From Clostridiales bacterium (GTDB taxonomy: Bacteria > Bacillota > Dehalobacteriia > UBA7702), in NCBI GenBank assembly GCA_036644995.1, contig JAVXOZ010000009.1:3121-67120 (forward strand): DNA of 64,000 bases. Reading direction: 5' to 3'. The position numbers were made by a program, and so were the translations under genes. Positions 18,981-49,472 of the stretch are shown one piece after another; position 1 is the first letter of the stretch; each line of letters starts with the position of its first letter. The notes under the pieces were generated by a model that worked only from the letters and a program-made list of their open reading frames with translations, ran no database searches and was not told where the DNA came from.

Positions 18981-19910
18981 ATGAAAACAAAAATCGATGT
19001 TATATCGGGATTTTTAGGTGCCGGTAAAACTACCCTAATCAAAAAAATAATACAAGGTATGCCCAGTAAAGAAGATATTGCCATAGTGGAAAACGAATTT
19101 GGCGATATTGGAATAGATGGGGATATCTTAAAGTCGTGCAATATTAACGTTCGTGAAATAAGCGGCGGCTGTATTTGTTGCAGTTTACACGGAAATTTTA
19201 TAGCCGCAGTTACAGAATTAGTTAATGAATATGCGCCCCAACGCATTATCATTGAGCCAACAGGAATTGGCAAATTATCAGATGTACTCGATGCCTTAAA
19301 ATCCGCAGGGAAAAAAGTTGATATCGAGTTTAATATAATTGCAGCAGTAGTAGACCCTTTAAAATTTCAAATACTAAACAATATGTTTGGAGCGTTCTTT
19401 CACAATCAAATAGCCACAGCGCAAACCATTTTTTTAAGCAAAGCACAATTTGCAGATGAGAACACTATTATGGACGTTACTAAAAAAATAAGGGCTATAA
19501 ACCCAGTTGCAACCATTGTAACAGCACCTTGGCAGGATTTGCCCGATACAGATATATTAAAAATAGCAGAGGATGACCGTATAGATAAAATCTTGGATTT
19601 AACAAACTATACTTACAAATATAGCAAAAATGATCCCATTTCTCAAATATCTTCATTGTGCTTTTGCCCCAAAAAGCCTCACACTAAAAAAGAATTTAGA
19701 GCTTTATTAGAAAAAATAGCAACTAATAAAGAATTGGGATTGCTTTTACGTAGCAAAGGATTTTTTAGTACCCCGGAGAATAAATTCATTCAGTTTGACT
19801 ATACTCCAGGTGCCATAAAATTCACAACATCCCATACCGATGCAGAAGATAAAATTATTATCATCGGTAAAAATCTAAATAAACCGGCAATAGATAAATA
19901 TTTTTGCTGA
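18981..19910 (+). CDS. CobW/HypB/UreG-family (COG0523) GTPase metallochaperone
   Basis: 309 aa; Walker A 'GFLGAGKTT', 'CICC' metal-binding motif, CobW C-terminal domain; first gene of the methylamine module. Confidence 0.8.
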   Translation: MKTKIDVISGFLGAGKTTLIKKIIQGMPSKEDIAIVENEFGDIGIDGDILKSCNINVREISGGCICCSLHGNFIAAVTELVNEYAPQRIIIEPTGIGKLSDVLDALKSAGKKVDIEFNIIAAVVDPLKFQILNNMFGAFFHNQIATAQTIFLSKAQFADENTIMDVTKKIRAINPVATIVTAPWQDLPDTDILKIAEDDRIDKILDLTNYTYKYSKNDPISQISSLCFCPKKPHTKKEFRALLEKIATNKELGLLLRSKGFFSTPENKFIQFDYTPGAIKFTTSHTDAEDKIIIIGKNLNKPAIDKYFC

Positions 19911-19941: not shown

Positions 19942-21786
19942 ATGGAATATAATATTAAATTTGAATCACACGATATAAGTGAAAACATAGAAGGCGGCAA
20001 AACTATATTAGAAGCAGCAGCTTTAGCATCTATTCCCATTGAAGGAAATTGCGGCGGAGCGGGAAATTGCAAAAAATGTCAAGTGGCAATTTTAGATAAT
20101 AAAGTTTTTGCGGCAAACGCCATCCCTGCCCTATCAAAAAACAAGCCACAAATGGTTCTTGCCTGCAAATATAAGATACACAGTGACCTTACCATAAACG
20201 TTCCCATTCAAAATGATGCTTTTAAACGTAAAACCACAATGAATTTTCAAAATAAAGATATAAAACCAAATTCCTCTATTGGTAAATCCTACATTGAATT
20301 GGATAAACCTTCTATTAATAACCAAATACCGGATTACGAACGCATAGTTACGGCACTGAACCTTAAGCCCGGAAATCCCAGTAAGGAATTATTGCAAATA
20401 TTGCCAAGGGTGTTACGGGATTCAAAATTTTCCATAACCGCAGTAACCAGAGATAATGAATTAATTTGGGTAGAACCCGGAGATACCACCGCAGAAAATT
20501 ACGGTTTGGTATATGATATTGGCACTACAACTGTGGTATGCCACTTGATTAATTTAACAAACGGTGCCATAGAAAAATCCACAGCAGATACCAATCCCCA
20601 AAATATTTTTGGTGCAGATGTAATTTCACGGGTTAACCACGTGATGACCAATTCCAAAAATAATAAAGGTTTAAACCAACTTTATACAAAAATAAATACC
20701 GTTATCAATGCACTTGCCGTAGAATTAATCAGAAAAAAGAGTATAGATAAAAATAGAATATATGATGTTACCGTTGTTGGCAATACAACAATGAGCCAAC
20801 TATTCATGGGTGTAGACCCCACTTATTTAGCAACATCCCCATTTATTCCCACTTACGTTCAAGGGGTGAATTTAAAAGCTTCAGAACTAAACCTGGATAT
20901 TAACCCCACAGCAAATGTTTTTTTACTTCCTAATATAGCAGGATATGTAGGCTCTGACACTGTGGGAGTAATTTTGGCAACTCATTTACATAAACAACCT
21001 GAATACAGCCTTGCCATTGATGTTGGCACCAATGGCGAACTGGCACTCAGCGGCAATGGTAAAATTCTTACTTGTTCCACCGCAGCAGGTCCCGCTTTTG
21101 AGGGTGCCCAAATAAAATGCGGCATGAGAGCAGCAGAAGGTGCCATAGAAGCCGTTTATATTGATAATGAAACAGGAACTTGTACATATGAAACCATTGG
21201 CAACACAAAACCCAAAGGTATATGCGGTTCCGGGGTATTAGATGTAGTGGCACAACTTTATAAAAGCGGTATTCTTGATAAATTTGGTGCTTTTAGATTC
21301 GGCAGAAATAACGATGGACACATCAACGATAAACTAAAAGAACGCATAAGCAAAGGTGACCACGGCTACGAATTTGTTTTGGCAACCGCTAAAGAAGCAT
21401 ATAAAGGAATACCCATTGTTATATGCCAAAAAGACATAAGGGAATTGCAAATGGGTAAAGGCGCAATTTATGCCGGCATTAAAATTTTAATGAAAGAAAT
21501 GAACATAACCGTTGAAAATCTACAAAAAATTATGATTGCCGGTGCTTTTGGCAATTATATAAAAGTTGAAAGTGCACTTGCCATAGGTTTACTGCCAAAT
21601 ATAACTAAAGATAAAATATCCTCTGTGGGAAATGCGGCTTCTGAAGGCGCAAGGCTGGCTCTAATATCTAAAGATGAAAGGGAACTCGGCTGTGAGCTGG
21701 CAAAACGCTGTAAGCATATTGAATTATCTTCATACGAAGAATTCCAAAATGAATACATGAATGCTTTAAATTTTCCTGAAATATAA
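19942..21786 (+). CDS. ramA: reductive activator of corrinoid proteins, RamA/RACo-type ([2Fe-2S] ferredoxin N-domain + ASKHA ATPase DUF4445)
   Basis: 614 aa; N-terminal 'CGGAGNCKKCQV' plant-type ferredoxin cluster; C-terminal actin-fold ATPase region; sits upstream of mtmCB. Confidence 0.75.
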   Translation: MEYNIKFESHDISENIEGGKTILEAAALASIPIEGNCGGAGNCKKCQVAILDNKVFAANAIPALSKNKPQMVLACKYKIHSDLTINVPIQNDAFKRKTTMNFQNKDIKPNSSIGKSYIELDKPSINNQIPDYERIVTALNLKPGNPSKELLQILPRVLRDSKFSITAVTRDNELIWVEPGDTTAENYGLVYDIGTTTVVCHLINLTNGAIEKSTADTNPQNIFGADVISRVNHVMTNSKNNKGLNQLYTKINTVINALAVELIRKKSIDKNRIYDVTVVGNTTMSQLFMGVDPTYLATSPFIPTYVQGVNLKASELNLDINPTANVFLLPNIAGYVGSDTVGVILATHLHKQPEYSLAIDVGTNGELALSGNGKILTCSTAAGPAFEGAQIKCGMRAAEGAIEAVYIDNETGTCTYETIGNTKPKGICGSGVLDVVAQLYKSGILDKFGAFRFGRNNDGHINDKLKERISKGDHGYEFVLATAKEAYKGIPIVICQKDIRELQMGKGAIYAGIKILMKEMNITVENLQKIMIAGAFGNYIKVESALAIGLLPNITKDKISSVGNAASEGARLALISKDERELGCELAKRCKHIELSSYEEFQNEYMNALNFPEI

Positions 21787-22132: not shown

Positions 22133-22777
22133 ATGTCCGATACAATTTTAAAGAAACTTAAAGAAGCCGTTGTAAATTTAGACCAGGAGGCCGCATTAGC
22201 CGCCGCCAAAGAAGCCTTAGACGCTAAAATGGATCCCGTTAACTCCATAGAAAATGGTTTAACAGCAGGAATGAACGAAATCGTAGATCGCTTTGATGAG
22301 GGCGAAATGTTCATGCCGCAAATCCTTATTGCCGCTCAAGCATTCATGGGTGCTTGCGAAATTTTACAAAGTGGTATTTCCGTAGAAGAAGCTGCCAAAA
22401 TGAGTAACGGCAGAGTAATGTTCTTCACAGTAGCCGGTGACATTCATGATATCGGCAAAAATATTGTTAAAACAATGTTTATGGCTAACAACTTTGAAGT
22501 TTGCGACTTAGGCCGTGACGTTGCAGCCGATGTAGTAGTTGATAAAGCTATCGAATGGAAAGCCGACATCATTGCCGGTTCCGCATTGATGACAACCACC
22601 ATGCCCGGTCAAAGAGATATCGTTGCTACTTTGGTAGAACGTGGTATCCGTGATGACTTTAAAGTAATGTTTGGTGGAGCTCCTGTTAATCAACAATGGT
22701 GTGATGAAATTGGTGCTGACGCTTATGGCGACAACGCTGCTGACTCCATCGAAATTGCTAAAAAATTAGTAAAATAA
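22133..22777 (+). CDS. mtmC: monomethylamine corrinoid protein (B12-binding, DxHxxG), MtmC-like
   Basis: 214 aa; helical cap domain then Rossmann B12-binding domain with 'GDIHDIG' (His-on cobalt ligand motif); directly upstream of mtmB. Confidence 0.85.
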   Translation: MSDTILKKLKEAVVNLDQEAALAAAKEALDAKMDPVNSIENGLTAGMNEIVDRFDEGEMFMPQILIAAQAFMGACEILQSGISVEEAAKMSNGRVMFFTVAGDIHDIGKNIVKTMFMANNFEVCDLGRDVAADVVVDKAIEWKADIIAGSALMTTTMPGQRDIVATLVERGIRDDFKVMFGGAPVNQQWCDEIGADAYGDNAADSIEIAKKLVK

Positions 22778-22802
22778 AAAATATTTGAAGGGCGGTAATA
22801 CT

Positions 22803-24188
22803 ATGACTTACAAAGAACGTGTTGGTGTTTTTGAAGCTTACCATCGTGCAATAACCGGTCCCCGTGTTAGCGAAAGCGAATGGGATAGCGTTATTATTCC
22901 CGGTACACTTACAAAACTCAAAGAAAAATATAATATCAAAATGGACAAAGGCACTGTTGTTCCTACCGATGATACTTTAATTAATAATATATTTAAAGCC
23001 GGTTTGGAAATGTTAACCACTGTTGGTGTTTATTGCATAGATACCGGCAGAGTTATTAAATATACAGAAGATGAAATCTTAACAGCCATCAAAAATACTC
23101 CCAAAGAATTTTATCTTGGTGAAGGCACTGATGCTGTTTTAATGAAAGACAGAAAACATGACTCCGAACGTTTCCCCATTATCCAAGGTGGACCTACCGG
23201 TGCTCCTGTTTCTGAAGAACAATTCTTAAATATGCATGAAGCATATGCCAAAGAACCTTTGGTAGACACCATTGTTAATGGCGTTCTCCAAACATGGCAT
23301 GGTCATGACCCCATTCCTAACACTCCTTATGAAATCGCAGCGGTTCGTTCCGAAGTTCAAATGCTTCGCTTGGCACAAACCAGAGCCGGTCATCCCGGCA
23401 TGGCATTGTAGGGCAGTGAAACTTCACTCTCTGCAGCAGGCGTTATCTGTTCTGACTTCCAAGGCGGAATGCGGCCAACAGACAGCCATGAAGTATCTCA
23501 ATTAAACGAATTGAAAATTGACTTAGCAGCTTTAACTTTCTGCTCTTACTATGTATTAAGTGGTCAAACTATTATGTGCGAACATATGCCCATATATGGC
23601 GGTTACACCGGTGGTCTTGAGGAAACGACTATCAGTGACGTTGCCAGCACGCTTAATGCTTTCGTAATGGCTCAAGGTAATTATGTATTAGACGGTCCCG
23701 TTCATATGCGTTGGGGAATCACCACTGCCAGAGAGGCTTTGGCAGTTGCTGGTCACTGTGCAAGAGCAATCAATGCTAATACAGAACTTATGTTAGCTAA
23801 CCAATATTACACCATGGCAGGTCCCTGTACTGTTATGTGCCTGTTAGAAACAGCTGCACAAGCAATGACAGATACCGCCAGCGGTCGTGAATTACTCTCC
23901 GGTGTTGCCGCCGCTAAAGGTGTTACCACCAACTTTAATACTCCTATGGAAGCCAGATTTATGGGTCAAGTTGCTCGTGCAACTGCCGGTAAAGATCTTT
24001 CAGTAGTTAATCCTATAATTGACTCATTATTGAAAATGTACGAAAAAGATTATAAAACTGCTCCTGTTGGCAAATCATTCGAAGAATGCTATGACCTTAC
24101 TACATTGCAACCTACTGATGAATATATCAGCGTATATGATGAAGCAGCAGAAGTATTAGCAAAGCTTGGTTTAGAATTAGGTAAATAA
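22803..24188 (+). CDS. mtmB: monomethylamine methyltransferase MtmB with in-frame UAG (23409-23411) decoded as pyrrolysine; single gene, not two ORFs
   Basis: ORFs 22785..23411 and 23469..24188 are in the same frame separated by exactly one TAG; the context 'GHPGMAL-UAG-GSETSLSAAG...GGMRPTDSHEVSQLNELKIDL' closely matches Methanosarcina MtmB around Pyl202 ('GRPGMGV-O-GPETSLSAQG...TDSHEVSQLNELKIDL'); UAG is codon 203 from ATG 22803; total about 461 aa, MtmB-sized. Confidence 0.85.
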
Positions 24189-24232: not shown

Positions 24233-25255
24233 ATGAATAAAAGAGAAAGATTTATGAATGCGATTCAAGGTCAAGAAACAGATAGGGTGTCCGTTTTTTG
24301 TGCCAATCAAACCGCAACATACGAACAAATGGAGGAATTGGGTGCCTCTTTTCCCGAAGCTAATTACGAAGCAGCCACTATGGCTAAATTAGCAGCGGGT
24401 GCACATAGCATTTTGGGATTTGACGCAGTTCGTGTTCCATTTTGCCAAACCATCGAATCCGAAGCTTTGGGCTGTAAGCTCCAAGATGGCGGTAAAGAAG
24501 GTATGCCAAGTATTGGCACTCATCCATACAGCGTTGATGATGAAATTCCATCCCTTGACGATTTAGTTTCCAAAGGGAGGATTCCTGTTGTTGCCGAAGC
24601 AGTTAAACTGCTTAAGGAATCTGTTGGCGATGAAGTCGCTGTTCTTGGTGGGATTGTTGGCCCATTTAGTATCGCCACAAACTTACTGGGTCTTATGAAT
24701 ATCATGATGGCCGTTGTTATGGAACCCAAAAAATTAGAACCTTGGTTAGAGCTTGCGGGAGATGCAGCCACCATTTATGGTGATGCATTAATCGAAGCAG
24801 GAGCCGATGGCATAGTTATTGAAGATATGATGGCATCCATGGATATGATTAGCCCTCAAATCTATCACGACCTTGCCGGTCCCTATATGAAGCGTTTGGT
24901 TGATCGCTTAGGCGATATTCCCACTATTCTTCATATATGCGGAAAAGTAAACAAATTAGTTGTTGATATGATTGATACCGGCGTTTCTGCCTTTAGTGTA
25001 GATACGAATATTGATATTGCAGATATTCAAGACAAAATCGCAAAAAGCGGCAAAACCGTTATGGTTGTAGGCGGAATTGATGCAGTAAACACATTATTCT
25101 ATGGCACCGAAATTGGTCCTACCACAGAAGAAGGAACAAAAGCAATTAAAGCCGGGTTTAATTTACTTGCACCCTCCTGCTCCATTCCTCCTGCTACACC
25201 AGTTACAAAACTGCGTGCAATGGTAGAAGTTGCGGTTTCGTTAGCCGGTAAATAA
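24233..25255 (+). CDS. methylcorrinoid:acceptor methyltransferase (MT2), uroporphyrinogen-decarboxylase (URO-D) family, MtbA/MtaA-like
   Basis: 340 aa; URO-D fold; 'ILHICGKV' with His-x-Cys zinc ligands typical of MtaA/MtbA. Confidence 0.75.
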   Translation: MNKRERFMNAIQGQETDRVSVFCANQTATYEQMEELGASFPEANYEAATMAKLAAGAHSILGFDAVRVPFCQTIESEALGCKLQDGGKEGMPSIGTHPYSVDDEIPSLDDLVSKGRIPVVAEAVKLLKESVGDEVAVLGGIVGPFSIATNLLGLMNIMMAVVMEPKKLEPWLELAGDAATIYGDALIEAGADGIVIEDMMASMDMISPQIYHDLAGPYMKRLVDRLGDIPTILHICGKVNKLVVDMIDTGVSAFSVDTNIDIADIQDKIAKSGKTVMVVGGIDAVNTLFYGTEIGPTTEEGTKAIKAGFNLLAPSCSIPPATPVTKLRAMVEVAVSLAGK

Positions 25256-25356: not shown

Positions 25357-26550
25357 ATGATCAATTCCGGTGATATTGCTTTTCTAATTATCTGCACATT
25401 AATTGTTATACTAATGACACCTGGAGTTGCAATTTTATATGGTGGTTTAGTAGATAAAAAACACACTAACACCATGATAATGCAAAATTTTATTGCTATT
25501 ACTATTATAACCTTGGTTTGGGCTATTTGCGGCTTTACTATAGCCTACGGCAATAATATTGCCGGTGGATTTATAGGTGGCTTTGATTATTTATTTTTGC
25601 AGGGGGTTTCTGCCGAACCTCATGCAATATTAGCTCCAACCGTACCTTTTACTCTATTTTTTGTATTACAAGCAGCTTTCGCCATCATTACCCCGGCTTT
25701 AATTTGCGGGGCTTTGGTGGGTAGAGCCAGACTTTTACCATACGTGATTTTTATCGCTTTATGGAGTCTTTTAATTTACAGCCCTGTGGTTCACTGGGTT
25801 TGGGGCGGTGGATTTTTAAGCCAATGGGGCTACATAGATTTCGCCGGTGGCGTACCTGTGCATATGATTGCAGGATTTTCTGCCTTAGCTGCGGTAATTG
25901 CCTTGGGTAACAGAAAAATTCCTAAAGATGGACCCAGCAACATGATGCACCTGGCAATAAGCATGGGCATTTTATGTGCGGGCTGGTTTGCCTTTAACAC
26001 TTGCAGTGCATTAGCAGCCAATGCTACTGCGGCTGTGGCTGCCACCAATACCTTATTAGCGGCTGCTGCAGGTAGTTTTATGTGGTTGATTTTGGGCTAT
26101 ATAAAGAACAAAAAGGCCGACTTATTAGATATATTTTTCGGAATATTAGCCGGTCTTGTGGTTAGTTCTCCCATATCGGGATTTGTTTCACCTTGGGTAG
26201 CTATGATTAGTGGTTTCATCGCCGGATTGTTCTGCTATTATGCTGTGCAATTCCGCACCTATAAAAATTGGGATGATACTTTAGATGTATGGGCTATTCA
26301 CGGTTGTGGTGGTTTGCTTGGGGTTTTAATTGTGGGTCTTTGTGCGAACCCCGCAATAGCACCAACAGCAGGTCTTTTATACGGCAATTCCCAACAACTG
26401 CTAATACAGGCAAGTGGCATATTAATTGGCGGACTATATAGCTTTATACTCACCTTTGTGTTAATAAAAGTTATTAATAAAGTTTGTCCTTTTAACTTTA
26501 AAAAAGACCATCCTGAATTTGAAGCAACCAAACAGGATATAAGTCTTTAA
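25357..26550 (+). CDS. amt: Amt/MEP-family ammonium/methylammonium permease
   Basis: 397 aa, about 11 TM helices; Amt signature 'DFAGG..VH' and conserved His in TM regions; last gene of the mtm module. Confidence 0.8.
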   Translation: MINSGDIAFLIICTLIVILMTPGVAILYGGLVDKKHTNTMIMQNFIAITIITLVWAICGFTIAYGNNIAGGFIGGFDYLFLQGVSAEPHAILAPTVPFTLFFVLQAAFAIITPALICGALVGRARLLPYVIFIALWSLLIYSPVVHWVWGGGFLSQWGYIDFAGGVPVHMIAGFSALAAVIALGNRKIPKDGPSNMMHLAISMGILCAGWFAFNTCSALAANATAAVAATNTLLAAAAGSFMWLILGYIKNKKADLLDIFFGILAGLVVSSPISGFVSPWVAMISGFIAGLFCYYAVQFRTYKNWDDTLDVWAIHGCGGLLGVLIVGLCANPAIAPTAGLLYGNSQQLLIQASGILIGGLYSFILTFVLIKVINKVCPFNFKKDHPEFEATKQDISL

Positions 26551-27081: not shown

Positions 27082-28350
27082 TTACTCTTTCCATTTGCTG
27101 GGGGAAACCCCTTCGCAACGTTTAAACATTTTGATGAAATAACTTTGGTCATTAAACCCTACACTGCTGGCTATTTGAGCCAAGGGCATATCATCACGTA
27201 AATACTGTTTACTTGCTTCTATTCTCACCTTATTTAGGTGATCCGAATAGGTTTGTCCTGTTTGTTTTTTGATTAAATTACTTAAATAAGTGGGGTTTAA
27301 TGCTACCTCACTTGCCAACTTTTGCAAAGAAATATCCATATAATTTTTGTTAATATATTCAAGTGCCTGAAAAATTATATCATTAACCCGATATTTGCTA
27401 CCATTCCAAAATGCCTGTTGAAAACGGGGCACGGTATTATAAAGAGCCTGATTTAGCTGTTCATTATTTGTTGCAGTTAAAATATCACAAATAGTAACAC
27501 ATTGTTTTCCAAATATAGTTTCCAAGTTTAAATCTCTTTTTTTGGCAATTTGCAATAATGTGTAAAAAAATCTGGCTGCCCTATATTTGCTTTCTTCAAA
27601 AACATTATGCTTATGTATTCTGTCTATAAATTTATACAAAATCATCTCTAAGGCTTTTTGACTCTGGATCAAATTGCCACCGGGCTTTAAAAGTTCTATT
27701 TCTCTTTCTAAAATGAAATAGTCTTGGTTAAAATCCGGATAAATATTTGTGCGGATTTGCTTTTTAAGTTCGTTAATTAAAGTACCTATTTGGTTTTGCT
27801 TTTCATTATAATTAACCGATGTAGATTCTAAACCAGGCACATTTTGAATGGATTTTTGCAAAACATTACTTAACGCCCTAATATGAGAGGTATCTTTCAA
27901 TGGTACATCATTTAATAATTGGTCAATTTCGCTATAATGAGTATTCAAAAGTTCATTTCTGTCTAAAAAATTATTCACTATATACTTATTTGGTTCGTGT
28001 ATTAAAATTGGTCCCGTAGAAGCAAAATAAACATTGTCATCATCTAAAAATACAGGTACGGTGATATTCAGCAAGCCATAAGGGCATAAATAATAATGAG
28101 CGTCTGTGGTTACCAAGGTTTGTTTACAATTACAAACATAATCATGGACACAAACCCCTGTTTTGTCATACTGCTTAATGTAATTACAAATGTCAGCACA
28201 TTCGTAGCAACTGCGGTTGCCTACCTTTTTACCTATTCCATCAAACAAGTAACAATTTACGCTGGTTGCCATTTCATAATCACTGATAGCAGATTTGATT
28301 TCTTTTAAGGCATGATAGTATTCCAACATATTTGAGTCCTCCCCGCTCAA
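27082..28350 (-). CDS. AraC/XylS-family transcriptional regulator with Cys-rich N-terminal sensor domain
   Basis: 422 aa; C-terminal dual HTH 'LASEVALNPTYLSNLIKKQTG...QIASSVGFNDQSYFIKMFKR'; N-terminal domain with CxxC...C-x-C cluster. Confidence 0.75.
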   Translation of the reverse strand: MSGEDSNMLEYYHALKEIKSAISDYEMATSVNCYLFDGIGKKVGNRSCYECADICNYIKQYDKTGVCVHDYVCNCKQTLVTTDAHYYLCPYGLLNITVPVFLDDDNVYFASTGPILIHEPNKYIVNNFLDRNELLNTHYSEIDQLLNDVPLKDTSHIRALSNVLQKSIQNVPGLESTSVNYNEKQNQIGTLINELKKQIRTNIYPDFNQDYFILEREIELLKPGGNLIQSQKALEMILYKFIDRIHKHNVFEESKYRAARFFYTLLQIAKKRDLNLETIFGKQCVTICDILTATNNEQLNQALYNTVPRFQQAFWNGSKYRVNDIIFQALEYINKNYMDISLQKLASEVALNPTYLSNLIKKQTGQTYSDHLNKVRIEASKQYLRDDMPLAQIASSVGFNDQSYFIKMFKRCEGVSPSKWKE

Positions 28351-28896: not shown

Positions 28897-29937
28897 ATGC
28901 ACAAACACGGAGGCGACGTTTATACTTATGAAAATATGGTAGATTTTTCTGCCAACATCAACCCACTGGGTATTCCCCAAAGCATTGTTTTGGCAGCCAC
29001 CAAAGGGGCTACCTTATCTGCCCAATATCCCGATGTGGAATGTAGGGAATTAAAAAAATCATTGGCTATTGCCGAAGATATAAAAAGCGAAAATATTGCT
29101 TGCGGCAACGGTGCCGCAGATTTGATTTTTTCTTTGGTTTTAGCAACCAAACCCAAAAAAGCAATTATGCTGGCTCCTACTTTTTACGAATATGAGCAGG
29201 CACTGCGTGCCATTGATTGCGAGATTATATACCACGAATTAACAGAAACCAATAATTTTGAATTAAAAAATGATTATTTAAACATTTTAGATGAATCAGT
29301 TGATATAATTTTTATATGCAATCCCAACAATCCCACAGGGTTGTTGGTGGATAAAGATTTTTTAGCAAAAGTATTGGAAAAATGTGAAAAAAATAACATT
29401 CTTTTTGTTTTAGATGAATGTTTTAACGATTTCCTTGATTACCCCACAGAATATTCCATGAAAGATTTTATACCAAAAAGCAAAAATCTTTTTATTTTAA
29501 AAGCATTTACTAAGCTTTACGCCATGGCGGGTTTAAGATTGGGCTACGGTTTTTCTTCCAATCAGGAATTAATGGCAAAAATAAAAGAAGTTACTCAACC
29601 TTGGAATGTTTCCACCCCTGCCCAACACTGCGGCATTGCAGCTTTAAAAGAAACTGAATATGTTGCCAAAGCCAGAAAAATAGTAAAAGAAGAACGGAAC
29701 TATCTACAAAAAAGTTTGGAATCTTTGGGCTTAACATTATACAATTCCATGGCGAATTACATCTTTTTTAAAGGTCCCGAAAATCTTGGGGATAAAACCA
29801 AAGAACACGGCTTTATGATTAGAGATTGCAGCAACTACCACGGTTTAACCAATGGCTTTTATCGCATTGCGGTGAGAGATCATAACGAAAATACAGGGCT
29901 TATTGCTGTTTTGGAAAAAATTTTAAAGGAGTGTTAA
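28897..29937 (+). CDS. cobD: L-threonine-O-3-phosphate decarboxylase (PLP-dependent class I/II aminotransferase fold)
   Basis: 346 aa; HisC/CobD-like; PLP-lysine region 'LKAFTKLYAMAGLRLGY'; gene context (followed by cobO). Confidence 0.75.
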   Translation: MHKHGGDVYTYENMVDFSANINPLGIPQSIVLAATKGATLSAQYPDVECRELKKSLAIAEDIKSENIACGNGAADLIFSLVLATKPKKAIMLAPTFYEYEQALRAIDCEIIYHELTETNNFELKNDYLNILDESVDIIFICNPNNPTGLLVDKDFLAKVLEKCEKNNILFVLDECFNDFLDYPTEYSMKDFIPKSKNLFILKAFTKLYAMAGLRLGYGFSSNQELMAKIKEVTQPWNVSTPAQHCGIAALKETEYVAKARKIVKEERNYLQKSLESLGLTLYNSMANYIFFKGPENLGDKTKEHGFMIRDCSNYHGLTNGFYRIAVRDHNENTGLIAVLEKILKEC

Positions 29938-29939
29938 CC

Positions 29940-30464
29940 ATGAAGGGATTAATACACATTTATACAGGCGACGGCAAAGGTAAATCCACCGCTGCCATTG
30001 GTTTAACCCTGCGTTGTGCAGGCTCTAACCATGATGTAATCTATACTCAATTTTTAAAAAACGGTAAATCATCAGAAATAAACATACTAAAAACCATCCC
30101 CAATATTAAACTGTTTTTTGCAGAAAAAAACTTTGGTTTTTTATTTAATGCCACAGATGAAGTAAAAGCAGAAGCAAAAATTGTTTATTCAAAATTATTA
30201 AAAACAGTGGTTGAAGCAGCCATAGAAACTAAACCCCAACTTTTGGTGCTTGATGAAATAATAGCCACTTATAATCACGATTTAATAGATAAAAATTATT
30301 TACTTGATTTTCTAAAAAATAAACCTGAAAATTTAGAAATTGTAATGACAGGGCGAGAACCCAGTCAAGAGCTAATAGAACTTGGGGATTACGTATCCAA
30401 TATCCAAAAGATTAAGCACCCATTTGATAAAGGAATCCCAGCCAGAATCGGCATAGAAAAATAA
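29940..30464 (+). CDS. cobO: cob(I)yrinic acid a,c-diamide / cob(I)alamin adenosyltransferase (CobA/CobO/BtuR type)
   Basis: 'GDGKGKSTAA' P-loop characteristic of CobA-type adenosyltransferases; RBS aaggag 8 nt before ATG 29940. Confidence 0.8.
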   Translation: MKGLIHIYTGDGKGKSTAAIGLTLRCAGSNHDVIYTQFLKNGKSSEINILKTIPNIKLFFAEKNFGFLFNATDEVKAEAKIVYSKLLKTVVEAAIETKPQLLVLDEIIATYNHDLIDKNYLLDFLKNKPENLEIVMTGREPSQELIELGDYVSNIQKIKHPFDKGIPARIGIEK

Positions 30465-30699: not shown

Positions 30700-31485
30700 T
30701 TATTTGATATTTACAGCATTTAAAGCGTGGTTCACGAAAATTTTTCTGATTTTTGGATATTCGCCCAAACCTTTTAATTGGCATTCAACTCCAAAGCCTT
30801 CTTTTTTTAACAGATTTTGCCAAGCATCATCATCTTCACCTGCCATATCATTGGTGGCATGATCCCCGGCAACTATCATAAAAGGTGCCAAAGTAATTTT
30901 TTTAGGCGAAAAGGCTTTCACCATTTTCAACATGGTAGGAAAATCCGGATATGCCTCCACAGTGCCCATAAACACATTGGTATAGCCTAAATCTTTAAAC
31001 ATATAGTCAAGTGCCGCATACACCGTATTGGTGGCGTGGGCAGTGCCGTGCCCCATAAAAACCAAGGCTTCATCTTTGGGTAAATCCCCATATTCCGCCA
31101 TGATAGCCTTTATGGTATCGAAAAAATCTTCGGTGTACATCAATAGCGGATTGCCAAAAGCAATGGAATCAAAATCCGCTGCAAAAGCCATAACATCTTC
31201 TTTCATAATATCATTTTCAATACCACTTAAAATATGAGTTGGCTGTACCACTAAATTTTTAACACCCTGAGCTTTCATGGTTTCCATAGCTTCAGTTACG
31301 GTATTTATTTTAATATTATCACGTTTCATAACTTTTTTTATGATAATTTTACTGGTCCAAGCTCTGTAAAGTGAATATTCAGGAAAAGCCGCCTGTAAAT
31401 CTTGCTCTAATTTATCAATGGTTTTTTCTCTGGTTTCATGATAGCTGGTACCAAAGCTAACTACTAAAAGTCCTTTACTTGCCAT
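30700..31485 (-). CDS. cbiK: sirohydrochlorin cobaltochelatase (anaerobic pathway)
   Basis: 261 aa; CbiK-like two-domain chelatase with conserved His ligands; in cbiMNQO-cbiK operon. Confidence 0.8.
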   Translation of the reverse strand: MASKGLLVVSFGTSYHETREKTIDKLEQDLQAAFPEYSLYRAWTSKIIIKKVMKRDNIKINTVTEAMETMKAQGVKNLVVQPTHILSGIENDIMKEDVMAFAADFDSIAFGNPLLMYTEDFFDTIKAIMAEYGDLPKDEALVFMGHGTAHATNTVYAALDYMFKDLGYTNVFMGTVEAYPDFPTMLKMVKAFSPKKITLAPFMIVAGDHATNDMAGEDDDAWQNLLKKEGFGVECQLKGLGEYPKIRKIFVNHALNAVNIK

Positions 31486-31486
31486 T

Positions 31487-32332
31487 TTATTGCTCCTTTG
31501 TGTTGTGAATATATTTTTCTAAAGTATCCAAATTCCGAGGTATGGGTAAACCTGCACTTAAAATTCCATTATTGGTGAGATTTTCAAATAACCGTAAAGC
31601 CGCAGGTTTTGCTAAATTAGTTTTTAGCAAGGCAGCCTCATCAGAAAACACATCTTCGGGACTTCCCTTAAGCAACACGCTTCCTTCGTGAAAAAGCACC
31701 ACTTCATCTGCCCATTCAAAGGCATGGTCCACATCGTGGGTGGCTATAACAATGGTAATGCCACGGCTGGCTAATTTATCAATCAAAGAATTAACAATAG
31801 CGGTATGTTTAGGGTCTAAAGCAGCCGCAGGTTCATCCAGCACTATTATTTCCGGATGCATAACCAAAATATCCGCCACAGAAACCTGTTTTTTTTGCCC
31901 TCCACTTAAAAAATGTGTGGGTTTATCACGGAAATCACTTATTTCCAAATCAGCTATTGCCTGTTCTACCCTACTTTTAGCTTCTTCTGTGCTTAAACCT
32001 ATGTTTAAAGCTCCAAAGGAAATCTCCTGATATACGTTGGCAGAAAACAGTTGATTATCGGGATCTTGAAAGACTATACCAACTTTTGTGCGAATATCCA
32101 GCAGTCCCTTTCTGGAATAATCATAGGGCGTGCCATTAAGATAAAGCTTGCCGCCATTTGGTTTATTTATGCCATTTAAACAAAGGAAAAAAGTGGATTT
32201 TCCCGAGCCATTTGCCCCTAAAAATGCTACTTTTTTACCTTTGGTAATTTCCAAATCAATGCCTTTTAAGGCTTTTGTACCATCATCATATGTAAAACTG
32301 AGATTTTCTGCCTTAATTATAATATTGTCCAT
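31487..32332 (-). CDS. cbiO: cobalt ECF transporter ATPase component
   Basis: Walker A 'GANGSGKST', ABC signature 'LSGGQKKQV', Walker B 'VLDEPAA'. Confidence 0.85.
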   Translation of the reverse strand: MDNIIIKAENLSFTYDDGTKALKGIDLEITKGKKVAFLGANGSGKSTFFLCLNGINKPNGGKLYLNGTPYDYSRKGLLDIRTKVGIVFQDPDNQLFSANVYQEISFGALNIGLSTEEAKSRVEQAIADLEISDFRDKPTHFLSGGQKKQVSVADILVMHPEIIVLDEPAAALDPKHTAIVNSLIDKLASRGITIVIATHDVDHAFEWADEVVLFHEGSVLLKGSPEDVFSDEAALLKTNLAKPAALRLFENLTNNGILSAGLPIPRNLDTLEKYIHNTKEQ

Positions 32333-32389
32333 TATCCTACTCCTAAATTGTTAAGTTGAAATATGCGTAAAAAGAAAAATTTTTTCAAC

Positions 32390-33166
32390 TTACCCATAAA
32401 TATGGATTACCACAGAAACCATGACCAAAGCTATATCAAAAAGAACCATAAACCAAATTTCTTTTTTATCGGTTATATATTCTTCTTCCAAAACAGTTAT
32501 TTTACCTGTATAACACCGAGATTCCATGGCATCGAAAAGTCTTGAAGATTTTTGAAAAGAGCGAATCAGCAAAACCGCCATTAAACTCCCAATAGAACTG
32601 CACGAAGTTTTAAAATTTTTATTACCCAAACGACTTTTTTGAGCCACAGTAAGTGCAGAGGCAATATCCAATAAAACAAAAATAAAACGGTAAATCAACA
32701 GCATCAACTCTATTAGCATCTCAGGACAACGCAGTCTTTTCAACACCATAAGTATATCTGTTATGGGAGTGGAAAGAGAGAGAAAATACAAAGATGAAAC
32801 CGATGCCAGTGCAGTAATGATTAATTGCGCCGCAAATAGTAAAGAATCAACACTGGAGGTAATATACCAGCTAAAAAACGGTATAGCAAAGGCAGATAGT
32901 GGCACTGAAGATATATTGATAATAATTGCCACTGTGCTTAAAATAAGGAAAACCAAGGGAATGGACATTAGCTTCAGAAAATAGGTAAAGGAAGTCCCAT
33001 TGTAAAATACAATGAGACTTCCCATTACCAGTAAAGCAATGGTAGACACAGTAATTGAGCGTGAAATAACGCATATCAACAAAGTTAATACTGCAAATAG
33101 AAATTTAATTGTTGGATTTTTATGCCGTAATTCCGAGGAATAACTCAATTTGTCAATAATAATCAT
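32390..33166 (-). CDS. cbiQ: cobalt ECF transporter T (transmembrane) component
   Basis: polytopic membrane protein after cbiN; start taken at 'MIIIDKLSY' (ATG 33166), which leaves a 4-nt gap from cbiN instead of a 59-nt overlap. Confidence 0.75.
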   Translation of the reverse strand: MIIIDKLSYSSELRHKNPTIKFLFAVLTLLICVISRSITVSTIALLVMGSLIVFYNGTSFTYFLKLMSIPLVFLILSTVAIIINISSVPLSAFAIPFFSWYITSSVDSLLFAAQLIITALASVSSLYFLSLSTPITDILMVLKRLRCPEMLIELMLLIYRFIFVLLDIASALTVAQKSRLGNKNFKTSCSSIGSLMAVLLIRSFQKSSRLFDAMESRCYTGKITVLEEEYITDKKEIWFMVLFDIALVMVSVVIHIYG

Positions 33167-33170
33167 GTGT

Positions 33171-33530
33171 TTACTTTTCCTTCTTGCCGCTCTTTGTTTT
33201 AGCTTCCACATTGCCGATATTTGCGGCATTTAGCTTTTTATTTTTAGAGCGTTCCCTTAAAGTTCCGAAACCAAAACCGATGATGCCTGCTCCCAATGCA
33301 GCCTGTAAGCTGAAAAGTAAGGACTCTGTTTCACCACCGGGTGGTTCCATCATTGAGGATGCCCAAGGCTGATAATCAGGGTTGATTTCCGTTATTGCTT
33401 CTTCTGCCTGACCATCTGCACCGCCAAATTCCGAATCTTTGATTGTCATCAGGGGGATAATGGCAATGAGTACACAAGCCAATAGCATAACCAAAACAAT
33501 AAGTGTGTTTTTAGAAGTTTTACCTGCCAT
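33171..33530 (-). CDS. cbiN: cobalt transport protein CbiN
   Basis: 119 aa, two TM helices, between cbiM and cbiQ. Confidence 0.75.
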   Translation of the reverse strand: MAGKTSKNTLIVLVMLLACVLIAIIPLMTIKDSEFGGADGQAEEAITEINPDYQPWASSMMEPPGGETESLLFSLQAALGAGIIGFGFGTLRERSKNKKLNAANIGNVEAKTKSGKKEK

Positions 33531-34282
33531 TATTTTATTCCTCCTTTTAAATAGCCCAAATCTGTTAATTCATCTTTGGCAAAGGATTCTAAGCCAATGA
33601 TTACAACAACAGTTACCAGGCCTTCAATGATTGCAAGAGGAACTTGGGTTGCAGCAAAAATACCCATGAATTTTATCAGCGAGGCAGTAAACCCACCCAC
33701 CTCCGAGGGGTAAGCCAAAGCCAGTTGAAACGAGGTTATTACATAAGTAAATAAATCACCTAAACACGCAGCCAGAAAAACAGCAACACGCTTGGGACAT
33801 TTAATTTTTAATGAGAGTTGGTAAATAGCAAAAGCGATGAAAGGACCTGCTATTGCCATGGAAAAAGTGTTTGCGCCCAAGGTTGTTAATCCACCATGAG
33901 CCAAAAGAATAGCTTGAAAAAGTAATACGATAATACCAATAATACTCATAGCTGAGGGGCCAAATAAAATAGCACCCAACCCTGTACCCGTGGGATGTGA
34001 ACTACTACCTGTTACCGATGGTATTTTTAATGCTGACAGTACAAATGCGTAGGCACCTACCATAGCTAATAACAGAAGAACGCGTCTGTTTTCTTTGATT
34101 GTTTTTTTAATAGAGAAAAAACCGGCGATGAGAAAGGGAATGCACAATGCGCCCCATGCGATGCAATATTGTATTGGCAAATACCCCTCCATGATGTGCA
34201 TTGCGCTTACCCCCGGGGTAAGGCTGAATACCACGGCAAAGCCCGCAGCAATAGACACAATGCGTTGTTGTTTAGTTGTCAT
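33530..34282 (-). CDS. cbiM: cobalt ECF transporter S component CbiM
   Basis: 250 aa; N-terminal 'MHIMEGYLP' (conserved Met-His N-terminus of CbiM/NikM); about 7 TM. Confidence 0.85.
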
Positions 34283-34309
34283 GTTTGCCTCCTAATTATT
34301 ATACAAAAT

Positions 34310-34540
34310 AAAAACACCCTACTTGCACGACCAAGTAAGGTGTTTGATGATTCCATGGAAATCATTACACATTGCCATCGACCGTAACAAAAGTGTAGGT
34401 ACCCCATACTTGGCAGGTCTTCTGGCTCAAAGGGCTTACCCTTCTTACAGCGGCGCGACCGCGCAGGATTCTCACCTGACTTCCCTATTCTCCCGTCCAT
34501 TGACTGAACGAGCACCAAATATGTTCTGTTTGTGAATATG
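34310..34540 (-). promoter_or_regulatory. cobalamin riboswitch upstream of cbiMNQO-cbiK
   Basis: minus strand 'AGGGAAGTCAGGTGAGAATCCTGCGCGGTCGCGCCGCTGTAAGAAGGG' matches the cobalamin-riboswitch core (AGGGAA..GGUGnnAAUCC..GCGG..CGCC-B12 box-like GCCGCUG). Confidence 0.7.
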
Positions 34541-34724
34541 TTAGCACAGCGGTAAATCAATGTCAATATTATTTTTTTATTAAATCCAATATTTTGCCTT
34601 AAAATCCTTGGAAATTCCGCACTTTTACTGGATTTAAAAGATTATCAAAAATATAAAAAATAATACTTGAATTTTTTCAAATATTGTAATATACTATTAC
34701 TTAGTTCTTATACAATTTGAACAA

Positions 34725-34900
34725 GCGGTGCCTTTTGGCATAAAAGAAAAGCAGGCTAAAATCCTGCACTGTCCCAGCAACCGTATTACTGACGAAAAGA
34801 TGTAAACCACTGTTTCTAAGGAAATGGGAAGGTATCTGAGTAGAATGAAGTTAAGTCGGTAGACCTACCGTTTGTAATTTTTCTCCTGGGTAGAGTTTTT
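34725..34900 (+). promoter_or_regulatory. probable second cobalamin riboswitch, divergent, upstream of cobQ-cbi-hem operon
   Basis: 'GGTGCC...AAAAGCAGGCTAAAATCCTGCACTGTCCCAGCAACCG...ACCACTG' contains GGUGCC, AAAAUCC and B12-box-like elements but deviates from the consensus order. Confidence 0.4.
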
Positions 34901-34965
34901 TATTGTGCGTAATTTTAGCTATTTAAAACCGTTCCGAGGTTGGAGCGGTTTTTTTATTTATAAAT

Positions 34966-36465
34966 ATGGAGGTGTTGATAATGAAAGGAATTATGATTCA
35001 AGGCTGCACAAGCGATGCAGGGAAAAGCTATGTAACCACTGCCTTGTGCCGCATTTTTAAAGATATGGGCTACAAAACCTGTCCTTATAAAAGCCAAAAT
35101 ATGTCCAATAACTCCTATGTAACTTGGGATGGTTGCGAAATTGGCCGTGCCCAAGGCGTTCAGGCTGAAGCTGCAGGGGTAAGACCCGAAACATATATGA
35201 ACCCTATTTTACTGAAGCCACAAAAAGATTGCGGTTCTGAAGTTGTGTTATTCGGTAAAGTATATAAAACCCTTTCCGGCAAAGAATATCACGATTCATT
35301 TACGATGAATGAAGGGTTAAAAGCCGCCCGTGAAGGGTTAAAAATCATTGAAGAAAAGTTTGATGTCATCGTCATTGAGGGTGCAGGCAGCCCTGCGGAA
35401 GTTAATTTAAACGACAGAGAAATAGTAAATATGCGTATAGCCAACGAAGCAGATGTACCTGTTTTACTGGTGGTTGATATCAACCGTGGTGGTTCTTTTG
35501 CCTCGGTGGTTGGCACTTTGGAATTAGTGGGTAAAGACCGTAGCCGCATTAAAGGCATTATTTTCAACCAATTCCGTGGTGACCTTTCCCTTTTTGAAGA
35601 TGGGGTTAAATGGATAGAAGAATACACAGGCATTAAAGTAGTTGGGGTTTTACCATACTTTAAAGATATTCAAATTGAAGGTGAGGATTCTTTAAGCATA
35701 AAATTCCAGCATAATAGCGGTTCTAAAGATGCAGTGGAACTGGGAATAGTGCGTATGCCCTATATATCCAACCACACAGATATGGAAATTTTTCAATATG
35801 AAGATGATGTAAATATTAGCTTTATAGATGAATTTTCATCTTTGGATAAATACGATGCCATAATTATTCCCGGCACCAAAAGCACCATCGGGGATTTGGA
35901 ATATTTGGAACAGCGTGGTGTTGCCGCCAAATTAAAAGCCTTTAAAGGCACTATTTTTGGAATTTGCGGCGGTTATCAAATAATGGGGGAAACCTTAATA
36001 GATGAAAATGGTATAGATTTTAAACCCGGCTACAAAAAAGAAGGATTGGGAATTTTACCTTTAACCACCTATTTTCAAAAGCAAAAAGAGGTGGGTCAGG
36101 TAACTGCCAAAGGCATACACCCAGCCGTTAAAGATATTGAAGTTTTGGGCTACGAAATACATTTGGGCAGAACCGATAAAACCAACGATGATATTTTACC
36201 CCTTTGGGAAATAGACGGTCACTGGGATGGGGTTGCCACCAAAGACTTTAGATGTGCGGGTTCCTACCTACACAATATTTTCCACAACGATAATTTCCGC
36301 ACTATTTGGTTAAACCAAATCAGAGCCAAAAAATCTTTACCCCAGCGTGAAGCCGTAGATACCGTGGCTTTTAAAGAAGAACAATACAGAAAGCTGGGAG
36401 AATATGCCAAAGAATATTTGGATATGGACTATATTATGAGCTTAATGAAAGAAGGAAATGAATAA
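34966..36465 (+). CDS. cobQ: cobyric acid synthase (CobQ/CbiP), DTB-synthetase-like ATPase + GATase1 domain
   Basis: 499 aa; N-terminal 'QGCTSDAGKSY' P-loop; C-terminal glutamine amidotransferase with 'GICGGYQ'. Confidence 0.85.
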   Translation: MEVLIMKGIMIQGCTSDAGKSYVTTALCRIFKDMGYKTCPYKSQNMSNNSYVTWDGCEIGRAQGVQAEAAGVRPETYMNPILLKPQKDCGSEVVLFGKVYKTLSGKEYHDSFTMNEGLKAAREGLKIIEEKFDVIVIEGAGSPAEVNLNDREIVNMRIANEADVPVLLVVDINRGGSFASVVGTLELVGKDRSRIKGIIFNQFRGDLSLFEDGVKWIEEYTGIKVVGVLPYFKDIQIEGEDSLSIKFQHNSGSKDAVELGIVRMPYISNHTDMEIFQYEDDVNISFIDEFSSLDKYDAIIIPGTKSTIGDLEYLEQRGVAAKLKAFKGTIFGICGGYQIMGETLIDENGIDFKPGYKKEGLGILPLTTYFQKQKEVGQVTAKGIHPAVKDIEVLGYEIHLGRTDKTNDDILPLWEIDGHWDGVATKDFRCAGSYLHNIFHNDNFRTIWLNQIRAKKSLPQREAVDTVAFKEEQYRKLGEYAKEYLDMDYIMSLMKEGNE

Positions 36466-37409
36466 TGCCTATATTCATTAGTACATTTCTGGATTTTATC
36501 TTGGGAGATCCCAAAGGATTCCCCCACCCCATTATATTAGTGGGTAAGCTTATTGGTTTTTACGAAAAATTATTTTACCGTGGTAAAAATAAAAAGCTCA
36601 TGGGGTTTTTCTTTATGCTGACGGTTCTTGGCACAGTAGGTGGGGTTTTAGCCTTAATTTTATGGTTAGCATCTAAATGGATGCCTCTTTACTGGATTAT
36701 CAGCATCTACTTACTTTACACCTCTTTAGCTTGGCGTTCCTTAAAAAAGGAAACAGGCTATGTGTTTCAAGCTTTAAAAAGAGGAAATATTGTCAAAGCC
36801 AGAAAAATGCTATCTTATGTGGTTGGTCGTGATACCGACGAACTAAACGAGGAAGAAATTATTAAAGCCACCTTGGAAACCATTGGGGAAAATACCATAG
36901 ATGGGGTTTTGGCTCCACTGTTTTATATGATAATCGGCTATTTTATAGGTATTCCTGTGATATTTGTTTATCTTTATAAATCCATCAATACCTTAGATTC
37001 CATGGTGGGTTATAAAAACGATAAATACGAGGATTTCGGTTATTTTTCGGCAAAGCTTGATGATGTAGTAAACTGGATACCCGCCAGAATAGGCTCGTTT
37101 ATCATGCTTTTAGGTGGTTTAATCTTAGGCTACGACTTTAAAAACGGCTGCAAAATTTGGAAGCGTGACCGCTTTGCCCATAATAGTCCCAACAGTGCCC
37201 AATCCGAAAGCGTGGTTGCAGGATTACTGGGAGTGCAGCTGGGTGGTGCCCATTGCTATTTTGGCAAAGAAATTTTTAAACCCACCATCGGCGATGCTTT
37301 AAGAGAGCCAAACCAAGATGATTACACAAAATGCTGCCGCATTTTAGATGCCGGCGTTATTATAACTTTATTGATATACACAGGCTTTTATTTAATTAAA
37401 ATTCTGTAA
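36465..37409 (+). CDS. cbiB: adenosylcobinamide-phosphate synthase (CobD/CbiB), membrane protein
   Basis: 314 aa polytopic; CbiB family; start overlaps cobQ stop. Confidence 0.8.
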   Translation: MPIFISTFLDFILGDPKGFPHPIILVGKLIGFYEKLFYRGKNKKLMGFFFMLTVLGTVGGVLALILWLASKWMPLYWIISIYLLYTSLAWRSLKKETGYVFQALKRGNIVKARKMLSYVVGRDTDELNEEEIIKATLETIGENTIDGVLAPLFYMIIGYFIGIPVIFVYLYKSINTLDSMVGYKNDKYEDFGYFSAKLDDVVNWIPARIGSFIMLLGGLILGYDFKNGCKIWKRDRFAHNSPNSAQSESVVAGLLGVQLGGAHCYFGKEIFKPTIGDALREPNQDDYTKCCRILDAGVIITLLIYTGFYLIKIL

Positions 37410-37420
37410 ACGGAGGAAAT

Positions 37421-38050
37421 ATGGAACACAATATTATTAACGAACCCAAAGCCATTGAAACAAAAAGCTTTGAAATTATCACCGAAATTTTAGGCGATAG
37501 AGTATTCCCCCAAGAACAACAAGGGGTTTTAAAAAGAGTCATTCACACCAGTGCGGATTTTGACTATGCAGATAATTTAGTTTTTGGCAACGACCCCATC
37601 GCCAGTGCCATCAAGGCATTTAAACAAGGATGTACTGTGGTTACTGATACTAATATGGCGGTTTCCGGCATCAATCAAACCAATCTTTCCAAATTTAATT
37701 CTGCTAAAGTTTGCTATATCGCAGAGCCGGAAATTGCAAAATTGGCAAAAGAACACAACACCACCCGTGCTGTGCAATCCATGGAATACGCCATAACCAA
37801 ATCGGAAAATAAAATATTCGCCATTGGCAATGCTCCCACAGCTTTAATAGCCCTTTACGATATGATTAAAGCAGGCAAAATCAAACCTGCCTTGGTGGTT
37901 GGTGTGCCTGTGGGCTTTGTAAATGTGGTGGAATCCAAAGAAATGTTTATGGAATTGGATGTACCCTATATTATTGCCAAAGGCAGAAAAGGCGGTAGCA
38001 ATGTGGCAGCCGCCATTATCAATGCCATTTTATTAGAGGCTTTGAAATAA
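37421..38050 (+). CDS. cbiC: cobalt-precorrin-8 methylmutase
   Basis: 209 aa; CbiC/CobH family. Confidence 0.75.
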   Translation: MEHNIINEPKAIETKSFEIITEILGDRVFPQEQQGVLKRVIHTSADFDYADNLVFGNDPIASAIKAFKQGCTVVTDTNMAVSGINQTNLSKFNSAKVCYIAEPEIAKLAKEHNTTRAVQSMEYAITKSENKIFAIGNAPTALIALYDMIKAGKIKPALVVGVPVGFVNVVESKEMFMELDVPYIIAKGRKGGSNVAAAIINAILLEALK

Positions 38051-38053
38051 GCC

Positions 38054-41404: not shown

Positions 41405-41416
41405 GGAGAAATTAAA

Positions 41417-42915: not shown

Positions 42916-42916
42916 C

Positions 42917-44299: not shown

Positions 44300-44301
44300 C
44301 T

Positions 44302-45558: not shown

Positions 45559-45559
45559 A

Positions 45560-49471: not shown

Positions 49472-49472
49472 A

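Follow-up and report, generated by a model that had tools for sequence, protein, structure and literature searches.

Whether a gene with a stop codon in its middle can encode one working enzyme is the question raised by a 64,000-nt stretch of DNA from a Clostridiales bacterium (assembly GCA_036644995.1, contig JAVXOZ010000009.1, positions 3,121 to 67,120 of the forward strand). This whole stretch is referred to here as the window, and its own numbering is used throughout. Two open reading frames (ORFs), 22785..23411 and 23469..24188, share a common frame, and the TAG at 23409-23411 is the only stop between 22785 and the TAA at 24186-24188. An earlier interpretation, the sequence-only reading, had taken the pair for a single mtmB, the gene for monomethylamine:corrinoid methyltransferase, in which an in-frame UAG specifies pyrrolysine (Pyl). 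The analysis presented here indicates that 22803-24188 is very probably one functional Pyl-dependent mtmB of an uncultured spore-forming Firmicute, operating through the mechanism proposed below.

Translation of 22803..24188 on the forward strand yields 461 residues with the TAG as the sole internal stop and the TAA as the final one, and the 1,386 nt harbor no frameshifts or further stops. The codons around the TAG are …GGC ATG GCA TTG TAG GGC AGT GAA…, and the residues flanking the UAG-encoded position (O) are …AGHPGMAL-O-GSETSLSAAGVICSDFQGGMR. The sequence and its translation thus bear out the single frame, the lone TAG and the MtmB-sized product of about 461 aa that had been proposed, while the ORF boundaries given with them require revision at both starts. 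The true start is almost certainly ATG 22803, since the sequence beginning MTYKERV… aligns to residue 1 of Methanosarcina barkeri MtmB1, and TTG 22785 is a mechanical start only. The first ATG 3' of the TAG, at 23469, is preceded by 19 codons (GSETSLSAAGVICSDFQGG) that belong to the conserved part of MtmB; hence the second ORF is no independent gene, and its start is evidently an artefact of ORF listing.

The assignment to MtmB is consistent on both sides of the stop codon. Residues ahead of the TAG match positions 2-195 of the Pfam MtmB profile (PF05369; E 1e-77), those behind it match positions 197-450 (E 2.7e-121), and hence the TAG fills exactly one profile position, 196. The read-through protein aligns from end to end with the characterised enzyme, M. 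barkeri MtmB1 (PDB 1L2Q/1NTH/1TV2; residues 1-457, E 2.5e-158). In this alignment residue 203, encoded by the UAG at 23409..23411, stands opposite chain residue 202, the pyrrolysine that is the catalytic residue in the solved structure. The likeness of the TAG surroundings to the Pyl202 region of the Methanosarcina protein, first noted from the sequence, therefore holds at the level of the individual residue.

The same codon recurs throughout the family. A scan of 185,579 species-representative genomes, a collection without the host species at 100 % identity, returned 56 loci with the post-TAG half of MtmB as the query. The closest relatives are the Peptococcaceae bacterium metagenome-assembled genomes (MAGs) HRGM_Genome_4028 and UBA7702, with 83-85 % amino-acid identity in both halves, followed by Sporomusa (four species), Pelosinus, Megamonas, Selenomonadaceae, Pectinatus, and Ca. 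Formimonas warabiya. Further relatives are found in Christensenellaceae, Eggerthellaceae, Desulfobulbus, and many Thermoleophilia and Actinomycetes MAGs, and the rest are Methanomassiliicoccales. In a rough neighbor-joining tree the bacterial MtmB proteins constitute their own clade, in which the window copy forms a subclade with loci L007 and L008, the latter from UBA7702. All 62 mtmB copies whose alignment reaches the pyrrolysine column, from ∼35 bacterial and 20 archaeal loci, carry TAG there, and in no orthologous locus do the two halves occur as separate genes.

Selection acts on the two halves alike. Against L007 and L008, the non-synonymous divergence (pN) is 0.11-0.13 and the synonymous divergence (pS) is saturated at 0.75-0.84, in each half of mtmB. 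Five MAG copies of the same species (GCA_036643835.1, GCA_036652275.1, GCA_036652095.1, GCA_036655535.1, and GCA_036648935.1) differ from the window mtmB by 0-2 nt, and all retain the TAG. These values indicate equal purifying selection on both halves as one unit, which is not the pattern of a pseudogene. A stop codon that is strictly conserved between equally constrained flanking halves is therefore best read as a coding position and not as a nonsense mutation.

Standard annotation mishandles this gene, as had been anticipated. The annotations of the five NCBI MAGs pass from mtmC to the gene for the methylcobamide methyltransferase (MT2; URO-D fold) that follows mtmB without a gene call in between; there is no mtmB protein record, and the mtmC and MT2 protein accessions are consecutive (e.g. 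MEG0874105 / MEG0874104). The relatives in the databases are 253-255-aa C-terminal fragments named 'monomethylamine:corrinoid methyltransferase', together with one full-length entry in which the TAG is rendered as Gln. Three database proteins considered as sense-codon orthologues were rejected. The 'full-length' P0001 owes its Gln to mis-translation of the TAG, and P0002 (Cys) and P0005 (Lys) are real paralogues from other lineages with no bearing on the window mtmB. Because mtmB is dropped or fragmented in this way, methylamine surveys of anaerobic and gut communities under-count bacterial monomethylamine users.

Several observations weigh against a functional Pyl-dependent gene. ARAGORN detects no pylT in the 64-kb window, where tRNA-Trp and tRNA-Leu are the only tRNA genes, or in the near-identical MAG contigs. 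The tblastn probes PylSc, PylB, PylC, PylD, and PylSn from Sporomusa silvacetica and a Desulfotomaculaceae MAG likewise find no counterpart in the window or in these contigs, in agreement with the sequence-only reading, which had listed pylT and pylSBCD as absent from the window. Among the 120 matches listed of more than 4,500, no PylSc is attributable to the host MAG project with either query (Desulfotomaculaceae or Christensenellaceae). The residue five positions before Pyl is His198 (codon 23394-23396; GHPGMAL) in the window and all same-species copies, whereas Arg (GR.G[M/L]) occupies this position in each of the 57 bacterial and archaeal copies from outside the species. Finally, coenzyme M, the methyl acceptor of zinc-type MtaA/MtbA enzymes in methanogens, is rare in bacteria.

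For 13 other bacterial loci ARAGORN does report tRNA-Pyl(CUA), located ∼100 nt downstream of mtmB, and its negative result for the window is therefore meaningful. By tblastn, at least 14 bacterial loci other than the window have a complete pylScBCDSn cassette next to mtmB. In UBA7702, whose mtmB lies on a 1.18-Mb contig, tblastn matches no pyl gene at a distance of up to 10 kb from mtmB. The negatives in the window, the MAG contigs, and UBA7702 thus indicate that this clade has its mtm module unlinked from the pyl cassette. That pylTSBCD is present in the host genome is inferred from the selection data.

Stop codon usage provides a further view of the host's genetic code. The 57 other ORFs of the window end in TAA (47), TGA (7), or TAG (3). 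All three TAG-ended ORFs, at 4303-4731 (forward strand), 6740-7054 (forward strand), and 54170-54898 (reverse strand, scpB), have a second in-frame stop 1-2 codons further on, compared with 26 % of the ORFs ending in TAA or TGA that have a second nearby in-frame stop; two of the three have no Pfam match. Within the limits of a tiny sample of three ORFs, this usage is weakly suggestive of, and at least compatible with, a Pyl-decoding host. No other ORF in the window shows a long conserved extension beyond a TAG, and the code is therefore not globally reassigned.

The absence of nearby pyl genes could also mean that the host lost or never had the pyl cassette, that UAG terminates translation, and that mtmB is left over, without function, from an operon gained by horizontal transfer. 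The missing pylT, which in many other bacteria lies just downstream of mtmB, is in line with this idea, as are the pyl-free related contigs, the unique Arg-to-His change near the Pyl site, and wider flanks that differ from those of the closest relative and are compatible with a mobile module. A remnant is nevertheless very unlikely in view of the equally strong purifying selection on both halves relative to relatives with saturated synonymous sites, an uninterrupted frame whose TAG is kept in five MAGs, and operon partners that are all intact. The lack of adjacent pyl genes in UBA7702 counts against it as well, since separated clusters then appear normal in the clade. A different proposal is that recoding of the UAG depends on a downstream RNA stem-loop, PYLIS, to which an even smaller probability is assigned. 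The Rfam PYLIS_1 model (RF01982) does match 23409..23508 on the forward strand, with 74.5 bits against a gathering score of 70. However, one of its eight outer and three of its seven inner pairs are non-canonical in the window (4/15 in total), and across 36 bacterial homologues pairing is found in 68.6 % of cells, equal to the column-shuffle mean, with a covariation score of 0.078 against a shuffled mean of 0.083. The minimum free energy fold is unlike the model and no better than shuffles (z = -1.04). PYLIS was accordingly rejected as a functional element, and the match is attributed to strong conservation of the coding sequence (…DSHEVSQLNELKIDL…) and not to RNA structure. The element has also been described in the literature as dispensable, with little covariance (PMC2933860).

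Two further alternatives dispense with pyrrolysine altogether. The UAG might be read by a Gln, Trp, or Lys suppressor tRNA or through lineage-wide reassignment of TAG, which would place a canonical residue at position 203. Natural MtmB variants with a sense codon at this column exist, with Lys (AAG) in L069 and L070 and Cys (TGT) in L068, and some gene callers render the TAG as Gln, both of which speak for this idea. Yet TAG still terminates other genes of the window such as scpB, no suppressor tRNA was found in the window, and the TAG is strict at one column in the 62 copies, which include genomes with an adjacent pyl cassette; this reading is slightly less probable again than one based on PYLIS. 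It is scarcely credible that an N-terminal polypeptide of 202 aa and a C-terminal one of 239 aa (from ATG 23469) assemble into an enzyme without Pyl. Mechanical ORF calling does yield both ORFs, and many C-terminal 'fragments' stand as proteins in public databases, but the protein is as well conserved over the 19 codons that lead from the TAG to ATG 23469 as in its other parts. The first downstream Met of the relatives is found elsewhere or is an internal conserved Met, and such an enzyme would lack the very residue to which the solved structure assigns catalysis.

A single Pyl-dependent mtmB also fits its surroundings, an operon with the complete set of components for methyl transfer. Upstream of mtmB on the same strand, 22133..22777 encodes an MtmC-type cognate corrinoid protein that scores 230 bits with TIGR02370 (pyl_corrinoid; cutoff 215), matches Pfam B12-binding and B12-binding_2, and carries GDIHDIG as its DxHxxG motif in translation. 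Downstream, 24233..25255 (forward strand) encodes the MT2, a member of the MtaA/MtbA/CmuA family (Pfam URO-D, 6e-69). It exceeds the NCBIfam cutoffs of NF004889 (316 bits, cutoff 244) and TIGR01463 (271 bits, cutoff 235) and remains under those of the equivalog models MtaA_Meth (303 vs 400) and MtbA (262 vs 600). Its alignment with Methanosarcina mazei MtaA (PDB 4AY7) has an E value of 6e-65 and places LHICG/PSCS on LHICG/PGCG, with H-x-C…C kept. In MtaA these positions are the zinc ligands, which activate a thiol acceptor. An Amt-family (methyl)ammonium channel follows at 25357..26550 on the forward strand (Pfam Ammonium_transp 1.2e-92; TIGR00836, 340 bits), and amt adjoins the MT2 gene in UBA7702 as well. 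A convergent gene at 27082..28350 (reverse strand) encodes a PocR-sensor/AraC-type regulator (Pfam PocR, HTH_18, HTH_AraC), and a homologue with 44 % identity is located upstream of mtmC in the same relative.

The upstream unit of the operon precedes mtmC on the forward strand. Its first gene, at 18981..19910, encodes a CobW/G3E-family GTPase that is a putative metallochaperone (Pfam cobW E 3e-36, CobW_C). The second, at 19942..21786, encodes a RACo-type corrinoid reductive activase, a bacterial RamA analogue with an N-terminal 2Fe-2S domain and an ASKHA ATPase (Pfam RACo_C_ter 9e-87, Raco_middle, RACo_linker, Fer2). In NCBIfam this protein scores 470 bits with an AcsV-like model and 135 bits with RamA TIGR04270, both under cutoff. 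Between the activase gene and mtmC is a 347-nt gap with a promoter-like TTTACT-18-TATAAT followed directly by a 13-bp hairpin with a T-run (21858-21932, forward strand), which may serve either to terminate the upstream unit or as an attenuator in a leader. Promoter and terminator scans were dropped as evidence because their site counts are near the shuffled expectation.

We infer Pyl insertion in this host, a specificity for monomethylamine, and the fate of the methyl group. The UAG at 23409-23411 would be read by Pyl-tRNA(CUA), to which PylS would attach the pyrrolysine supplied by PylBCD, and the genes pylT, pylS, and pylBCD would have to be located elsewhere in the genome. Such decoding would yield a TIM-barrel enzyme of 461 residues, the 203rd of which would be Pyl. 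Pyl would serve MtmB in the binding and activation of monomethylamine, whose methyl group would be transferred to the Co(I) corrinoid carried by the neighboring MtmC. Methyl-Co(III)-MtmC would then act as methyl donor for a zinc-containing MT2 of the MtaA/MtbA family, and the methyl group would pass on either to a thiol cofactor, as it does in methanogens, or into a series of steps terminating in tetrahydrofolate and the Wood-Ljungdahl pathway. Oxidised Co(II) corrinoid would be re-reduced by the RACo-type activase at the expense of ATP. The Amt channel may carry methylammonium in or ammonium out, the PocR/AraC protein may act as the operon regulator, and the neighboring riboswitch-controlled genes for cobalt uptake and cobamide synthesis may provide the cofactor.

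The more specific proposal, made for a gut-type Clostridiales lineage, that the zinc MtbA-like enzyme passes the methyl group of monomethylamine to coenzyme M or an analogue, and not to tetrahydrofolate, in combination with an mtm operon that is uncoupled from the pyl cassette, is unlikely although it retains some probability. If true, a methanogen-style chain for monomethylamine:thiol methyl transfer would operate in a bacterium. With the mtm operon physically apart from the pyl cassette, expression of the enzyme would depend on a separately regulated genetic-code expansion. The Wood-Ljungdahl pathway is a plausible methyl sink if the host belongs to the order UBA7702. A comparative study of the Dehalobacteriia reports the complete pathway in this order, with pyrrolysine and methylamines unmentioned (PMC10327494).

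Comparison with known systems separates the shared features from the divergent ones. M. barkeri MtmB1 has the same length as the window protein and the UAG at the Pyl202 column, and the window resembles the archaeal system further in its adjacent cognate corrinoid protein and MtaA/MtbA-type MT2. In contrast to M. barkeri, the window host is bacterial, its activase is of the RACo type (2Fe-2S and ASKHA) and not the archaeal RamA, its PYLIS region has no conserved structure, its MtmB has His in place of Arg at the fifth residue ahead of Pyl, and its methyl acceptor cannot be taken to be coenzyme M. Among bacteria, Desulfotomaculum acetoxidans, also a spore-forming Firmicute, has the four-component set mtmB-mtmC-mtbA-ramA with an amber mtmB and an MtbA-type MT2 that resembles coenzyme M methylases. 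As judged from its published description, the window differs in lineage and in the addition of Amt, the PocR regulator, CobW, and an adjoining cobamide cluster. Rother and Krzycki (2010) described this D. acetoxidans cluster as encoding MtmB, a corrinoid protein, MtbA, and a bacterial RamA, noted amber-containing methylamine methyltransferase genes in every bacterium with a pyl operon, and speculated on coenzyme M as the acceptor (PMC2933860).

Sporomusa ovata and S. silvacetica have the arrangement mtmB-pylT-ramA-(URO-D)-pylScBCDSn. They share with the window the TAG column, mtmC upstream, and a RACo-type activase, and the C-terminal half of the window MtmB is 72-73 % identical to Sporomusa MtmB. 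The URO-D gene of Sporomusa is only ∼27 % identical to the window MT2. While the pyl cassette directly follows mtmB in Sporomusa (PMC3772150), ARAGORN and tblastn find no pylT or pyl genes contiguous with mtmB in the 64 kb of the window, unlike in clusters of the Sporomusa or Desulfotomaculaceae type. In S. silvacetica (L009/L010) and Sporomusa sp. KB1 (L012/L013), two mtmB genes ∼16 kb apart bracket pylT-ramA-(URO-D)-pylScBCDSn.

The nearest counterparts, UBA7702 and HRGM_Genome_4028 (GTDB class Dehalobacteriia, order UBA7702), have the closest mtmB and the same pocR-mtmC-mtmB-MT2-amt module, likewise with no pyl gene in the surrounding 10 kb, whereas their module has different chromosomal surroundings and places the regulator at the opposite side of the operon. 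Synteny with UBA7702 was dropped as a test of organismal relatedness because the operon module alone is kept and the wider flanks are not; the host taxonomy hence stays NCBI's 'Clostridiales bacterium', the name given to the host MAGs.

Bacterial Pyl-type mtmB clusters have been on record since at least 2010, with the architecture seen here published for D. acetoxidans (PMC2933860), S. ovata (PMC3772150), and Formimonas (PMC6778437), and dozens of bacterial species carry such genes. The genome note on S. ovata reports pylTScBCDSn with Pyl-containing methylamine methyltransferases upstream (PMC3772150). The genome paper on Formimonas ('DCMF') lists mtmB, mtbB, and 28 gene pairs that are split by codons for Pyl or selenocysteine (PMC6778437), and Kivenson and Giovannoni address the misannotation of Pyl genes in gut bacteria (PMC7593587). 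The window thus presents no new phenomenon and leaves the understanding of pyrrolysine decoding unchanged. It adds a further uncultured Firmicute lineage, near the order UBA7702 and the human-gut MAG HRGM_Genome_4028, that probably uses pyrrolysine and is tied to a self-contained island of methylamine and cobamide genes. The practical value lies mainly in annotation and in gut methylamine metabolism.

The distribution of mtmB extends beyond these lineages. Many soil MAGs of Thermoleophilia and Actinomycetes (L029, L031-L041, L056, L057, L059) harbor TAG-containing mtmB, often in two copies. A full pyl cassette is located beside mtmB in at least L029 and the Eggerthellaceae locus L027, and Pyl-type mtmB is therefore common well beyond Firmicutes. 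The sense-codon variants come from other sources. L069 (791-2212) and L070 (214-1635), from two independent assemblies (JGI 3300010049; ENA ERZ27264051), encode an MtmB paralogue of the Methanomassiliicoccales type with AAG (Lys) at the Pyl column (GRPGMPI-K-GPDTPL). Its neighbors are a pylC that looks genuine (51-56 % identity to Methanomassiliicoccales PylC) and, on the other strand, a normal mtmB-mtmC-amt set with the TAG. L068 (554-1951), on a single contig of Logan SRR15661548, encodes a Sporomusa-like MtmB with 76 % identity and TGT (Cys) at the Pyl column, followed by mtmC and a URO-D gene; the change from TAG to TGT amounts to two substitutions.

Genes for cobalt uptake and cobamide synthesis extend from the mtm operon to the right. 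A CobD-like aminotransferase and a CobO corrinoid adenosyltransferase are encoded at 28897..30464 on the forward strand (Pfam Aminotran_1_2, CobA_CobO_BtuR). The reverse strand of 30700..34534 contains cbiK and the cobalt transporter genes cbiMNQO (Pfam CbiK, CbiM; CbiQ and ABC genes are called in the MAG contigs). A cobalamin riboswitch at 34395-34534 (reverse strand; Rfam RF00174, 79.9 bits) is located ahead of cbiMNQO-cbiK, and a second one at 34709-34886 (forward strand; RF00174, 78.5 bits) leads an anaerobic cobamide biosynthesis cluster (Pfam CobQ/CbiA, CbiD, and TP_methylase+HEM4 in sampled ORFs), riboswitch and cluster together spanning 34709..52237 on the forward strand. The two riboswitches are thus back to back and divergent, one toward cbiMNQO-cbiK and the other toward the ∼17-kb cobamide cluster, beside the mtm operon.

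The host markers in the window, polA, a mutM-coaE gene, topA, GerMN, YtfJ, scpAB, and trpS, are of bacterial kind and typical of Firmicutes. The bacterial host that the sequence-only reading had deduced from polA, mutM, GerMN, YtfJ, and trpS is thereby confirmed. The MAG contigs extend ∼3.5 kb past the left end of the window and contain purA and an SLH protein gene there. The mutM-coaE gene is a single ORF of 477 aa at 14593-16026 (reverse strand) in which MutM (formamidopyrimidine-DNA glycosylase) domains are fused to CoaE (dephospho-CoA kinase), and the MAG annotations likewise present it as one gene. A ZMP/ZTP riboswitch at 10116-10193 (reverse strand) is located upstream of an AICARFT/IMPCHase (purH-like) gene at 8900-10072, which is the expected arrangement.

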